In this document: in pieces, positions 5,201 to 8,200 of the stretch
Position numbering within the stretch: position 1 is the first letter of the stretch
Layout: each line of letters starts with the position of its first letter
Assembly (NCBI GenBank): GCA_963734495.1
Contig: CAVTHK010000010.1
Location: forward strand, 1-64,000
Length of the DNA stretch: 64,000 nt
Reading direction: 5' to 3'
From: an uncultured Spirochaetota bacterium
GTDB lineage: Bacteria > Spirochaetota > Spirochaetia > SZUA-6 > CAVTHK01
Made by a program: the position numbers

Positions 5201-8200
5201 ATCGCCTCGCGCGGCTTTTCCTGCGGCGGCGTGGGCTGAGGAGCATTCGCGAGCCCGGCCACGGGCGCCGCCGAAGCGGGCGGCTGCGCGGCGAGCGAAC
5301 TTTCGCTCTCCAGGGGGAACGCGGGCTCCTGGACCGCGACGGCCGCGGGAGCAGGCGACGCCGGCGTGGGAGTCTGCGGCGTCGCCTCGGCGGGAGCCAC
5401 GACCGCTTCGGGAGGCGGCTCCGGGCTGGCCAGCGGCGGCTGCACGAGCTGCGCCTGGGCGACCGCGGGAGGCGCTTCGCTTGCTTCCGGCGCTGCCGGC
5501 GGGGCCGCAACCACCTGCGGCTGCGGAGGAGGCGGTGTGCCCGCCATTTCTTCCTCGCGCGGCGGCAGGAACAGCTGCTTCTGCGGCGACCGCTCCACGT
5601 ACTGCTGCAGTCCTTCGGCCGGCTTCTGGGGCTCTGCTGCCGCCGGCGGCTCCGGCGGCTTCGCGGGCGCCTGGGCCACCGCTGGCGGCGCTGCCGCCTC
5701 CTGGGGCGGAATGAACAGCTGCTTCTGGGGCTCGCGCGTCACTGCCTCGCCGAGGCCCGGCTCCGCGGGCGGCGGGGCCGCCGGAGCGGGAGCGGCGGGC
5801 GCCTGCGCGACCTGCGCCGGGGGCTTCGCGGCGGGCTGACCGCCCGCGGCCCTGAGCTCTTCCTTGAGCGCAGCGAGCCCGCTCCGCGGGTCATCCGGAT
5901 CGGTGGTCGACAGAGGCGGATTGTAGGCGCTCGGAGGCAGCGTCGTAACCGGCGATGCGACGACCCGCTCCGTGTCGGCCGAAACGAGCCCGAGGGCATC
6001 CGCGGCCTGATCGGAGAGGAGCAGGAAGATGCCGGTCGTCCCGTCGATCCTGCGGGTCACCGTGACTTCGACGCTCTTTCCCGTGCGCGAGCTCGACACG
6101 CGGATGCGGGAGCCCTCGGGAAAGGAGTTGCTGGCGGCAAGAAGGCCCGGCGTGGTGAACTCGCCGGGGCGGATGCGCGCGGCGTTGCCCTCCCACTGCT
6201 CGGCCCACAGGGGGAGACAGATCAGGAGCGCCAGGAACGCCGCAGCTCTCTGCATCGACATGGGAGGATCTCCTACGACCTGGCGTCTCGTAGACCCCCC
6301 GTACTCGGGGGGTTCGCCAGGTCCCAAGCCCCCTGTACCCGGGGCCCTCCCTTTCATTTTCGGTCGGCGCCGCGATTGCGGTTAGCGCCGGGCCGCGCCA
6401 TCTCCCGCGAGTACGCGGGACCAGGGCGCCTGGCTGCGCCGGGCCACCCCCTCGCTTCGCTCGGGGCCTTCGGGCGCCATCCGTGGCGCTTGCCCGTGGG
6501 CTGCGACATCCCCGGCGAGTACGCCGGGCCAGGGCGCCTGGCGCTTGCCCGGCGCTCGCGCCATCTCCCGCGAGTACGCGGGACCAGGGCGCCTGGCTGC
6601 GCCGGGCCCGCGACATCCCTGTCACTTGCCTTCCACACGGCCCGATGTTAGGATCGCGCGATCTCAGCGTCACCGTCAAGCTATGATGAGCACTGACCCT
6701 CCGGTCCAACGATACTATGCGCTCCAGGTGGCCGCGCGCGCCGAGGCGCGCTTTATCCGCATCGCCGCCGTCGTGGTCGAGCGCTTTCCGGGGGTGCGCC
6801 TGTTCTGGCCGCGGCGCAGCCTCAGGATCCGTCGCGCCGGCAAGTGGCGCGAAATGCTGCAGCCGATCTTTCCCGGCTATCTCTTTCTCGAAGCCGACAG
6901 CCTCGACACCGGCCTCCATCACGGCCTGCGGGGGGTCCCGGGTTTCCTCCGCTTCCTCCCGAGCAACCGCAACGTCCAGCCCGTCTCCGATCGCGACGCG
7001 CGGCCCCTCGTGGGTCTGCTGCGCCACGGGGAGATCGTCCGCAAGTCCATCGCGGTTTTCGACGAAAATAACCGTATCAGGATCCTCGAAGGGCCCCTCA
7101 AGGGGCTCGAAGGCTTGATTGTGAAGGTCGACCGCCGCAAGGGCCGCGCCAAGGTCAAGCTGGACCTGTACGACGAGACCCGCCTGGTCGATTTCGGCTT
7201 CACCTCGCTCGAGAAGGACCGGGAGCGGACGGAATCCACGTGAAGTGGCGGCAGCGGAGCAGAATCTACATCGTCGGCGCCGGCAATGCGGGCATGACGG
7301 TCGCCAACGAGATCAAAGCGAAGGGGAACGTCGGCCGCGTAGTCGCCTTCCTCGACGACGACCCTGACAAGATCGGCCACAGCATCCAGGGCTTCCCGAT
7401 CCTTGGGCCGATCGAAGACGTGCTGGCCGTCCTCAACACGACCCCCGACGACGAAGCGATCATCGCGATCCCGAGCGGCAAGCGGCGCGAGCTGCGCAGG
7501 ATCTACGACCTCCTGCGCCACGCGGATTTCGTCAGCATCGGTTATCTGCCGGGCGTCTCCCAGGTGGTCGATGGCGACGCTCACCTCGCCCTCACGCGCG
7601 ACATCAACCCGGAGGACCTGCTCTCACGCGACCCCGTGCCGGTCTCGCTCCGCGAGAGCCTCTCCTACGTGCGCGGCAGGCGCGTGCTCGTCACGGGGGC
7701 CGGCGGAAGCATCGGCAGCGAGCTCTGCCGGCAGCTCCTCTCCGGGGGCGCGCAGAGGCTGTACCTCTTCGGCCACGGGGAGAACAGCATCTTCGGCATC
7801 GACCGCGAGCTGCGGCTCCTGCAGAAAGAGGGCGTCGGCGAGGCGGCCACAATCGTGCCGATCATAGGCGAGCTGCAGGACCGGGAGTACGTCCGCTACA
7901 TCATGGGACGCCTCCGGGCCGACATCGTCTTTCACACCGCGGCCCACAAGCACGTGACCCTGATGGAAGCCAACCCCGTAGCCGCGGTCCAGAACAACGT
8001 CTTCGGAACGCGGAACCTCATCGATGCGAGCGTGGCGGCCGCGGTGGAGAGCTTCGTCCTGATCTCCACCGACAAGGCCGTCGACCCGATCTGCGTCTAC
8101 GGAGCGTCCAAGCGCATCGCCGAGGAGCTCGTGCTCCGGGAGCGCGCCGCGGGCCGCCGCTTCCTCGTCGTCCGCTTCGGCAACGTGCTCGCGTCGCGGG

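Follow-up and report, generated by a model that had tools for sequence, protein, structure and literature searches.

The window, a 64,000-nucleotide stretch of DNA from an uncultured Spirochaetota bacterium, contains a spacer between a LigA-like gene on the reverse strand (start at 6261) and a NusG-like gene on the forward strand (6683-7243). This spacer is occupied by hairpins that share the six-base word GAGTAC, which comprises a four-base loop and its closing pair. The initial annotation placed the interval 6294-6583 directly behind a stop codon; instead, it lies between two divergent gene starts, in a divergent promoter spacer. The spacer folds at z = -5.6 relative to shuffled sequences, and a 52-nt repeat occurs three times in the window, the copies at 6394-6445 and 6557-6608 being identical.

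Before the LigA-like gene, we read in the sequence a leader-type unit ('family C') at 6270..6345 on the reverse strand. Its ribosome-binding site, AGGAG, is the complement of 6270-6274, and 6277-6285 and 6315-6323 would form its outer 9-bp stem. Inside this stem, on the same strand, is a GAGTAC hairpin at 6294..6313 with 7 further pairs (forward-strand word GTACTC at 6301-6306), and an imperfect small hairpin of the unit lies at about 6329-6344, also on the reverse strand. The unit is absent from the corresponding spacer of the congener, our comparison genome from the same genus, which retains CTCCT.

The rest of the spacer holds three composite units on the forward strand. Unit 1 (6373..6457) has its GAGTAC hairpin at 6403-6420 and matches our covariance model R1 with 45.5 bits. 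A second type of hairpin, H1, follows at 6474..6489 on the same strand (GCGCCA-tccg-TGGCGC, then TTGCCC). Unit 2 (6485..6542; GAGTAC hairpin 6511-6528) is partial and was found as an nhmmer match. Unit 3 (6538..6627; GAGTAC hairpin 6566-6583) reaches 84 bits with R1, and its pairs were counted on alignment A1; CTTG is at 6544-6547, the outer arms are at 6547-6555 and 6599-6607, and an H1 hairpin (GACA-tccc-TGTC) is at 6612-6623. Directly after unit 3, at 6626..6654 on the forward strand, comes a putative promoter of the NusG-like gene: TTGCCT, 17 nt, TAGGAT. The congener has TTGACT, 17 nt and TAGGAT at an equal distance from the start, consistent with this assignment. The putative promoter fits a relaxed promoter pattern; a promoter scan requiring 9 of 12 matches found none in 6200-6720.

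Two further places in the window contain units. A weak R1 match (31 bits, E 0.004) lies on the reverse strand at 37423..37507, between convergent gene ends, with a GAGTAC hairpin at 37461-37478; at the counterpart of 37430-37620, the congener carries 2.7 kb of extra genes, which took this spacer out of the comparison. On the forward strand, an array at 41241..41414 contains GAGTAC hairpins at 41287-41304, 41350-41365 (5 further pairs) and 41375-41392, and ends on TTGACA at 41409-41414. The congener shares this TTGACA together with ~25 nt behind it, and has different hairpins upstream. The spacing from TTGACA to TAGTTT is only 14 nt, which does not establish a sigma-70 promoter, and TTGACA is not assigned as a -35 box.

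A dispersed intergenic hairpin with variable stems

The genome contains 2533 GAGTAC and GTACTC words, 2039 genic and 494 intergenic by our own gene calls. Counting the further complementary pairs that flank each word, we found 0 pairs for 1721 words, 1 for 559, 2 for 113, 3 for 52, 4 for 18, 5 for 15, 6 for 42, 7 for 11 and 8 for 2. The 55 copies with at least 6 further perfect pairs are all intergenic and none is genic, a status that depends on a crude codon-likelihood caller of our own (4435 calls, 79% coding). Under a stricter criterion of one base, a single copy reaches the end of a called gene. The initial annotation's counts of words and of long-stemmed copies were thus reproduced.

The stem is most often 7 bp long. 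When all perfect tetraloop hairpins with a 7-bp stem are ranked, GAGTAC is again the commonest intergenic loop, with 55 intergenic and 0 genic copies; the next words are GCGGAC (31 and 9), GAGGAC (21 and 7), GAAGAC (12 and 11) and ATCCCT (11 and 0). The six-pair arm occurs in exactly 17 versions, in agreement with the at least 17 noted earlier. Position 2 of the arm is C in all 55 copies, forming a C-G pair, and position 1 is C in 38 and T in 17. The loop had been described as invariant, which is not strictly so: ten aligned units carry GAGTAC in eight cases, GAATAC in one and GCAGAC in one. Of the single mismatches in the stem, 7 are wobble pairs if the GAGTAC strand is read and 9 if the opposite strand is, which favours neither as the RNA strand.

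The same 22-mer, allowing 0-1 mismatch, is present at 5 loci. The 18-mer CCCGGCGAGTACGCCGGG occurs as single copies in unrelated high-GC genomes among the matches listed (at least 109 stretches); these copies are consistent with chance or with coding (Pro-Gly-Glu-Tyr-Ala-Gly), and say nothing on spread.

Architecture of the composite units

A composite unit consists of an outer 9-bp stem, a middle stem with the GAGTAC hairpin in its loop, and a terminal hairpin with a second fixed loop, CA-TCCN-TG (H1), for which a word census was run with a control. In alignment A1, 90.7% of the pair cells are paired, as against at most 45% for slid partners. Compensatory changes occur in 12 of 23 pairs, where for the middle stem the three inner pairs were counted because an alignment gap shifts the remainder; the observed values were reached by 0 of 500 shuffles. 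This covariation supports the structure of the composite unit.

An iterated nhmmer search gave 34 matches in 23 loci, and R1 identifies 29 units in this genome, with scores of up to 101 bits. The architecture of the leader-type unit in the window, which differs from that of the composite units, recurs at about two dozen gene starts, ending in GTCrTAGGAGG followed by ATG. Neighbouring GAGTAC copies no more than 150 nt apart are direct in 13 cases and inverted in 2. The earlier picture of a dispersed, modular, intergenic hairpin repeat whose stems change in step is upheld, as is its occurrence in both orientations: co-directional spacers hold 15 sense and 10 antisense copies.

The family is restricted to this genus among the genomes searched. 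R1 has 5 matches in the congener, and among 90 other genomes of the order there was a single weak match in each of 5 and none in 85. In Rfam 15, no family matches the units at the gathering score, the only match in the 64-kb window being a tRNA; over 6200-6700, there was only a chance match (E 0.76).

Docking at three kinds of signal

The units dock at three places: stop codons, the TTG of promoter -35 boxes, and the AGGAG ribosome-binding site. They sit exactly against these signals and re-use native bases as hairpin feet. The initial annotation's stop-codon-only picture is thus too narrow, although the twelve genes (as we called them) in which the stop codon forms the foot of the first hairpin were found again. 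The foot fits the type of stop codon in 12 of 12, and also in one case in the congener. The stops had been described as opal; this holds for six of the twelve genes (TGA), and the other six end in TAG. Each of the seven TGA cases has a codon ending in AC ahead of the stop.

It had also been proposed that a unit begins and ends with the same word. This is borne out for the TGA class, where units start after CTGA and end in ...GGGCTGA in 6 of 6 arrays. Leader-type units have GGAG at both ends. In the -35 class, TTG or CAG is found at unit starts and ends, and start and end words match in 7 of 11 arrays, by our own reading no better than chance for two words. Units read CTTG-palindrome...hairpin-CTTG or TCAG...TCAG. 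The word GTAG occurs in 3 of the 12 stop-codon units, only where the TAG stop creates it. Three types of unit at three different signals would not be predicted by one target specificity.

Filled and empty sites

We compared 13 spacers with their counterparts in the congener. All 13 are longer here and hold units that are absent there at that place, with the qualification that these loci were picked because they are filled here, an ascertainment bias. The junctions were read by eye, as MAFFT global alignments of filled and empty spacers were poor. As to direction, we infer that the difference would reflect gain here rather than loss in the congener.

Where units lie directly behind native stop codons, the stop position is the same in 6 of 6 orthologs and the unit starts right after it; the native stops are TGA preceded by TAC, CAC, TAT or AAC, and TAG preceded by AGC or GTR. 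Pairs of -35 and -10 boxes are conserved in the congener at C7:131533, C7:143861, C5:131407 (contig:position), position 6626 of the window, and for both promoters at C3:175214. AGGAG is retained at C5:133837 and C5:131279. At E 1e-30, the congener yielded no ortholog of C13:38615 or of C9:73240.

Two empty sites point to native bases that were re-used as arms. At one, the congener reads TAG-c-GCCCACGG, as compared with TAG, 41 nt and GCCCACGG here. Since GCCCACGG is present at the empty site, the outer 3' arm pre-exists there, although it could be a remnant of a partly deleted unit. At another, the congener has TGA-gcccc-TCA, and this genome TGA-gcccccc-GAGTAC-gggggg... Of five empty -35 sites in the congener, two have CTTG and three have GTTG; filled sites have CTTG, and stop-codon sites have CTGA or TAG. 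With G in front of TTG at three of the five, TTG and not CTTG would be the native word.

Origin of the units

Units with this structure, dispersal, restriction to one genus, absence from orthologous spacers and set of native docking words are probably selfish, non-coding, REP/BIME-like palindromic DNA, confined to the genus and built of interchangeable, nesting hairpin modules. We hold the full reading more tentatively, namely that they also spread by copy-and-paste via short shared words, a mechanism that is unproven. From its place beside a stop codon, a -35 TTG or AGGAG, a unit would be copied next to a like word at another gene, most likely through replication-associated template switching at 3-8 nt of microhomology. 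The native word would be taken into the unit, where it serves as the foot of a hairpin or as an outer arm, and the unit would begin with the word that follows it. Stems might stay perfect while changing in step if each arm can serve as template for its partner (quasipalindrome correction), in which case no selection on RNA is needed. Template switching that homogenises the arms of inverted repeats is described as an established process in PMC7202029 and PMC8604942.

The copying mechanism, the correction of arms and the lack of a dedicated enzyme are what we infer. For long-range template switching at such frequency, we know of no documented route that takes repeats to dozens of loci, and known REP families are thought to be driven by enzymes. 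Moreover, a conserved loop with free stems would be the expected product of a loop-reading protein, which counts against enzyme-free copying.

For the question of how transposase-less REP-like repeats multiply, this genus provides clean filled and empty sites with a readable native junction word, at which short-homology copying can be weighed against enzyme-guided insertion. There are also practical consequences: the units lengthen spacers inside operons and beside promoters, and, by overlapping stop codons, they can mislead gene callers and the prediction of operons and terminators in high-GC metagenome assemblies.

Movement by a transposase

Alternatively, an HUH enzyme might move the units in trans as miniature single-strand transposons; it would be either an IS91-family Y2 transposase or a Y1/RAYT transposase missing from the assembly. 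The hairpins would then be recognition elements, and the inner arm of the terminal hairpin would guide insertion by pairing with the target word, in the manner of IS608 guides. We regard this as unlikely, though it accounts for several observations. The end words and palindromes of the IS91 family resemble the CTTG...CTTG and TCAG...TCAG of the units, Y2 genes are present, and IS608 can be re-aimed by pairing (PMC3201880, PMC5934647). The fit of the foot to the stop type in all twelve genes and the congener case, and the AC before every TGA, would also follow from guided insertion.

The genes themselves speak against it. In agreement with the initial annotation, Y1_Tnp (PF01797) has 0 matches here and 0 in the 99%-complete congener, although a gene could be missing from this assembly, which is only 83% complete; the family is present in 14 of 31 relatives, and control genomes gave matches. 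IS91-family Y2 genes or fragments occur at C18, C1, C5, C8 and C11. PF04986 matches once at C18:54499-55008 (63.7 bits) and twice on C11, and BLAST gave further fragments. The C18 copy retains the zinc ribbon, the HWH motif and YIRRY; its tail is frameshifted relative to the congener, whose copy is without its 5' end, and both compared copies look damaged from their sequences. Homology between the Y2 copies here and in the congener is confined to the gene. Proximity of a unit to the C18 gene had been offered as a lead, which does not hold up: about 65 nt separate this unit (C18:53707-53760) from the repeated part of the element, and the Y2 genes present show no link to the units. No similarity of the units to the ends of resident Y2 elements could be shown, the IS ends not being definable. 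In addition, the native word at three of five empty sites is TTG rather than CTTG, and the presence of Y2 in 20 of the 31 relatives does not track hairpin counts.

A more specific version, in which the units are programmable single-strand elements whose inner terminal-hairpin arm guides sub-families to the last bases of a stop codon, to a -35 TTG or to AGGAG, with a Y2 or other HUH mover, is quite unlikely in our estimation. If true, no REP-like repeats would have been linked to a Y2 enzyme before these, and guide-directed docking on gene punctuation would occur in nature.

Placement and possible roles in expression

Another explanation is that the units are selected cis-acting elements, functioning in RNA or in supercoiled DNA and alike through shared function. 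The proposed roles would be terminating or stabilising hairpins at 3' ends, leader hairpins at ribosome-binding sites, and cruciform insulators between divergent promoters. Such roles fit the location of the units (gene ends, leaders, the space between promoters), as do the covarying stems and the sense orientation of some copies inside operons (C3:162790, C7:116527). Divergent spacers (618 of 3642) hold 23 of the 55 GAGTAC copies, an enrichment over their 27% share of spacer length, and negative supercoiling in divergent spacers favours cruciforms. Oriented on the GAGTAC strand, 38 of the 55 copies have a gene start downstream.

Against this, units that are absent from all 13 congener spacers do not qualify as conserved regulatory elements of the genes concerned. 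The position of many copies, upstream of the -35 box, leaves them out of the transcript, and both orientations occur in co-directional spacers. There is no T-run: terminator-like sites (a GC-rich hairpin and T-run) number 0 in 6200-6720 of the window, and no Rfam family matches. At C5:135299, a separate canonical terminator, conserved in the congener, lies downstream of the unit. A strict promoter pattern is found within 150 nt downstream of 10 of the 55 hairpins, and upstream, pointing away, of 8, in comparison to 3.4% of random points; the hairpins lie near promoters, with no orientation rule from this test. Hairpin orientation relative to GC skew is concordant for 33 copies and discordant for 22, with a mean absolute skew of 0.01, too weak to name leading and lagging strands. 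On balance, we consider selected cis-acting function improbable.

Comparison with known systems

That the units are ordinary members of the CGTC-tagged REP superfamily of Di Nocera and co-workers is very doubtful in comparison with its published description. In composite units the hairpin has C(A/G/C)TC before its first stem arm, a loop of 4 nt, and CCA after its second arm. Its stem, however, has 7 bp, with C-G at position 2 in every copy and C at position 1 in 38 of 55, and neighbours are direct rather than head-to-head in 13 of 15 pairs. According to PMC3733652, these REPs have a CGTC, TGTC or CCTC tag, a 4-5-nt loop and a CCA tail, with stems of 8-9 bp, A/T almost always in the first two positions and mostly head-to-head dimers, and occur in Spirochaetes among other phyla, without a dedicated transposase. 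The units are similar in type of tag, loop, tail and lack of a dedicated transposase, and differ in stem length, the A/T rule at the foot and type of dimer. Tag and tail are present in a subset of copies only: of the 55, 15 carry C[AGC]TC (mostly CATC), 21 carry the CCA tail, and 15 combine this tail with an NNTC tag.

REP, BIME and REPIN-RAYT systems share with the units short, GC-rich, extragenic palindromes in tens of copies, mosaic clusters and restriction to a lineage. Neither this genome nor the congener yielded a RAYT/Y1 gene, which in such systems usually has REPs on both sides; a REP family has a fixed stem, whereas the units have free stems and a kept loop, and REPIN/BIME doublets are inverted, whereas neighbours here are mostly direct. 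The 4 nt before the GAGTAC hairpin are CATC (11), GCAC (6) and others, never GTAG, the tetranucleotide of REP ends. Provision of a stop codon by a repeat is already in print, as the termini of some GTAG REPs supply the TAG of the neighbouring gene (PMC3733652).

Similar mosaics are known elsewhere. The Neisseria intergenic mosaic elements with dRS3 are short inverted repeats bracketing variable modules in intergenic arrays. By description, they resemble the units in their mosaic arrays; they are not known to dock on stop codons, -35 boxes or ribosome-binding sites. The dRS3 repeat is CGTC-1 in PMC3733652.

In IS608, of the IS200/IS605 family, target choice occurs by base pairing and can be re-aimed (PMC3201880, PMC5934647). 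The foot bases of the terminal hairpin in our units are likewise complementary to the word at the insertion site. However, the pairing here is an ordinary Watson-Crick extension of the stem, visible only after insertion, and no Y1 enzyme was found in either genome. IS91-family elements, as described in PMC13181058, make no target duplication, insert beside a tetranucleotide (CTTG, GTTC; T always second), have a related tetranucleotide at the other end, and carry subterminal palindromes at both ends. The units, found in a genome that contains Y2 genes, carry no gene themselves. They resemble these elements in their palindromes, in the lack of a target duplication and in having a tetranucleotide beside one end to which the word at the opposite end is related.

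The GAGTAC hairpin is one module of a nested unit

The word GAGTAC, comprising the tetraloop and its closing pair, occurs 2533 times in this genome when counted together with its complement (G000; 5.38 Mb in 18 contigs, 68% GC; the 64-kb window opens contig C10). Words flanked by zero to five further complementary pairs fall steadily in number (1721, 559, 113, 52, 18 and 15), and the trend then breaks with a jump: six pairs flank 42 words, seven flank 11 and eight flank 2. Gene calling relied on codon log-likelihoods learned from long open frames and gave 4435 genes (79% coding). 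By these calls of our own, all 55 copies with at least six further pairs lie outside genes, as the initial annotation had stated, while GAGTAC words with any flanks are 2039 genic versus 494 intergenic; by a one-base test, a single copy is in contact with the end of a called gene. The claimed minimum of 17 stem versions became exactly 17 six-pair arm versions, every one perfectly matched. GAGTAC is likewise confirmed as the commonest intergenic loop of perfect 7-bp tetraloop hairpins (55 outside genes, 0 inside), followed in order by GCGGAC, GAGGAC, GAAGAC and ATCCCT. The loop had also been called invariant, which it is not: ten aligned units carry GAGTAC (8), GAATAC (1) and GCAGAC (1). Because other loops occur among the intergenic hairpins, GAGTAC heads a G-N-N-K-A-C series as its most numerous class and is no absolute invariant.

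An iterated nhmmer search seeded with window positions 6534-6640 converged on 34 hits in 23 loci. With the GAGTAC strand as reference, the aligned units start with a junction word, TTG or CAG, followed by an outer left arm (GCCCGGCGC and GGGTGGCGC among its versions), the left half of a middle stem ending in CATC, and the GAGTAC hairpin; then come CCARRGCGC, the middle stem's right half, the outer right arm and a small terminal hairpin, H1, with the loop CA-TCCN-TG. The alignment bears out the view that the hairpin is one module of a mosaic unit. Across ten units, standard pairs fill 90.7% of pair cells versus at most 45% with slid partners, and 12 of 23 pairs show both-sided changes, values reached by none of 500 shuffles. 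H1 is a repeat of its own: CATCCNTG with at least four further pairs is found 38 times outside and 4 times inside genes, and the reversed word, the control in the same genome-wide census, reaches three further pairs at no site. The middle stem resembles an H1 with a GAGTAC hairpin taken up into its loop, and GAGTAC hairpins are in some cases enclosed by others; the modules therefore nest. By our own flank rules, the contexts of the 55 hairpins are CATC...CCARRGC (13), nested (4), tandem or adjacent (10), followed by (TC)ARRGC (6), leader-type (2) and other (20).

Just upstream of gene starts, two or three GAGTAC hairpins follow one another in tandem at C7:100078-100126, C16:80424-80473, C13:332564-332588 and C10:299449-299499, with a period of ~24 nt (~50 nt at C10:299449) and stems CCTGTT and CCTGAC, which are absent from other sites. 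A different repeat of ~90 nt, aggagcctgtcggacttgcgg...GGGCACGG-CGGA-CCGTGCCC-gat-CTAG with a GCGGAC-loop hairpin, has ~25 copies genome-wide (e.g., window ~34086-34170 and ~19520-19600, C3:116846, C5:112020, C6:57821), most of which end 0-3 nt from the TAG stop codon of an opposite-strand gene. A further word, ACATAGAGTTGAG (9-mers AGAGTTGAG and ACATAGAGT), has ~25 occurrences across the genome, all of them outside called genes, and is an intergenic repeat unrelated to the hairpin units.

Units dock on stop codons, promoters and ribosome-binding sites

The interval 6294-6583 had been placed behind a stop codon. It lies instead in a 426-nt spacer between two divergent gene starts, LigA-like (6261, minus strand) and NusG-like (6683, plus strand), and so has no position behind a stop codon. 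A leader-type unit, the type found in front of gene starts, occupies window 6270-6345. The LigA-like frame (window 2848-6261, minus strand) has 1137 aa, of which the N-terminus resembles a signal peptide followed by a region without assignment; NAD-dependent DNA ligase domains begin only at residue 528, and the N-terminal part is kept beside the NusG-like gene in the congener. Elsewhere in the window (40113-40502, 41475-42220 and others), several genes appear split, namely a solute-binding protein (160 + 71 aa), a pyridine-nucleotide oxidoreductase fragment and a LysE fragment. This suggests assembly frameshift errors or real decay and makes every gene call less trustworthy.

With arrays oriented by the GAGTAC strand, 19 of 23 loci have a gene start on the right; the remaining four have an opposite-strand gene's stop codon there, always ...gagcacatccctgtgCTCAgt. 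A promoter-like pattern (TTGNNN, 16-18 nt, TANNN[AT]) begins -12 to +28 nt from the last hit in 12 of 23 loci, ten of them at -7 to +6 nt, compared with a rate of 3.6% at random intergenic points. Twelve genes end in an H1 foot, in agreement with the annotated minimum, and each of the twelve stop codons has its last two bases paired. The description of these stops as opal holds for six TGA genes (five TAC TGA GCACAGGGATGTGCTC, one AAC TGA); the other six end in TAG and have, for example, the H1 feet GTAGGTACA/TGTACCTAC. Two of the TAG cases are copies inside a 1.6-kb duplication (C18:52968-54560 and C1:860298-858706, 95.7% identity), which spans a metabolic gene's 3' part, the hairpin unit that follows its TAG, and 570 nt from the start of an IS91-type transposase gene. 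A third unit type, to which the leader-type unit at window 6270-6345 belongs, ends in GTCrTAGGAGG a few bases ahead of the start codon of about two dozen genes, from a reading of 47 rows.

The docking words are native by comparison with the congener

Relatives of the NusG-like protein are all from uncultured Spirochaetales/Spirochaetaceae; the nearest (77% identity) belongs to the congener, taken as the same-genus genome G001. We compared 13 spacers matched by synteny. In all 13, G000 is longer, with units missing at the same place in the congener; one congener spacer (that matching window 41126-41407) holds different hairpins. Lengths in G000 versus the congener are 426 versus 127 nt between the divergent gene starts (window 6258-6683), 146 versus 15 nt from stop to -35 (C7:131461), 129 versus 12 nt from TGA to the next ATG (C7:116527), 84 versus 10 nt between two operon genes (C3:162790) and 58 versus 5 nt between two convergent stops (C7:119313). 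Two back-to-back -35 boxes at C3:175214 have between them a 16-nt gap that is filled by a unit.

The placement of units exactly behind stop codons was reproduced: six of six orthologs have the stop at the same position, with the unit directly after it. The -35/-10 hexamers and their 17-nt spacing are kept in the congener at C7:131533, C7:143861, C5:131407, window 6626 and, for both promoters, C3:175214, as is AGGAG where leader-type units were gained. By this comparison, the stop codons, -35/-10 hexamers and AGGAG are native. Native bases also serve as hairpin arms at two sites: congener TAG-c-GCCCACGG corresponds to TAG, 41 nt, GCCCACGG in G000, these 41 nt holding the complement of both flanks, and congener TGA-gcccc-TCA to TGA-gcccccc-GAGTAC-gggggg. 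The congener's own units, at other genes, follow the same logic (gac TGA GTACAgggaTGTACTC gcccgtgggc; H1-TTGACT-17 nt-TAGGAT).

A covariance model of the unit has at least 29 matches in G000 and at least 5 in the congener, counts that are floors because only 46 candidates per genome were scored. At that depth, five of the order's other 90 genomes give single weak matches (E 2e-4 to 4e-3) and 85 give none. The repeat is real, genus-restricted and modular.

Possible modes of spread

The units have the behaviour of REP/BIME-type selfish palindromic DNA. We favour spread by copying anchored in short words common to donor and recipient, because each of three unit types docks on a signal of its own, the unit invariably comes to include the native word, and the word found after a unit also opens it. 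TGA arrays are bracketed CTGA...CTGA in six of six. Stop codon context, TTG and GGAG would serve as the anchors. If one arm is recopied from its partner, as described for quasipalindrome template switching (PMC7202029, PMC8604942), perfect stems changing in step would follow with no selection needed.

Movement by a loop-reading HUH enzyme guided by the hairpin foot would fit nearly as well, by analogy with IS608, for which foot bases are described as guiding target choice (PMC3201880, PMC5934647). As already reported, no Y1 gene was found in either G000 or the congener, although such a gene occurs in 14 of 31 relatives. G000 carries IS91-type Y2 genes, as a C18 copy with zinc ribbon, HWH motif and YIRRY, and as fragments on C1, C5, C8 and C11. 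IS91-family elements are described as inserting beside CTTG or GTTC with no duplication, with a related word at the opposite end and subterminal palindromes (PMC13181058), a layout that CTTG-palindrome...H1-CTTG in the units resembles. Several observations speak against a Y2 link: the unit beside the C18 gene, earlier offered as a lead to the mover, lies ~65 nt outside the repeated segment; that gene's tail is frameshifted relative to the congener copy, which itself is without a 5' end; three of five empty sites natively carry TTG rather than CTTG; and Y2 presence among relatives does not track hairpin counts. Downstream of a congener Y2 gene (G001:C59, L083), the stop codon of the transposase marks the beginning of a ~75-nt tandem duplication (cagTAGactcagctcgcc...).

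A role purely as regulatory RNA is unlikely, since orthologous congener spacers are without units and units are placed upstream of promoters. A terminator scan of window 6200-6720 found no T-runs behind the hairpins, and no Rfam family matched. Neither strand is singled out as the acting one: single mismatches that wobble number 7 on the GAGTAC strand versus 9 on the other, co-directional spacers hold 15 sense versus 10 antisense copies, and GC skew in G000 is too weak for use.

Comparison with known systems

REPs close to stop codons reportedly affect translation, according to a Mol Cell study of 2015 (58:431). The main interest of the present repeats, which is moderate, is the clean junctions on offer. 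The literature already describes REP termini supplying TAG stop codons and transposase-free REP classes, with Spirochaetes among the hosts (PMC3733652). Tag, 4-nt loop and CCA tail are common to a subset of the hairpins and the CGTC class as its published text describes it, but stem length, the A/T foot rule and dimer type differ, and for this reason we do not file the GAGTAC hairpins in that class.
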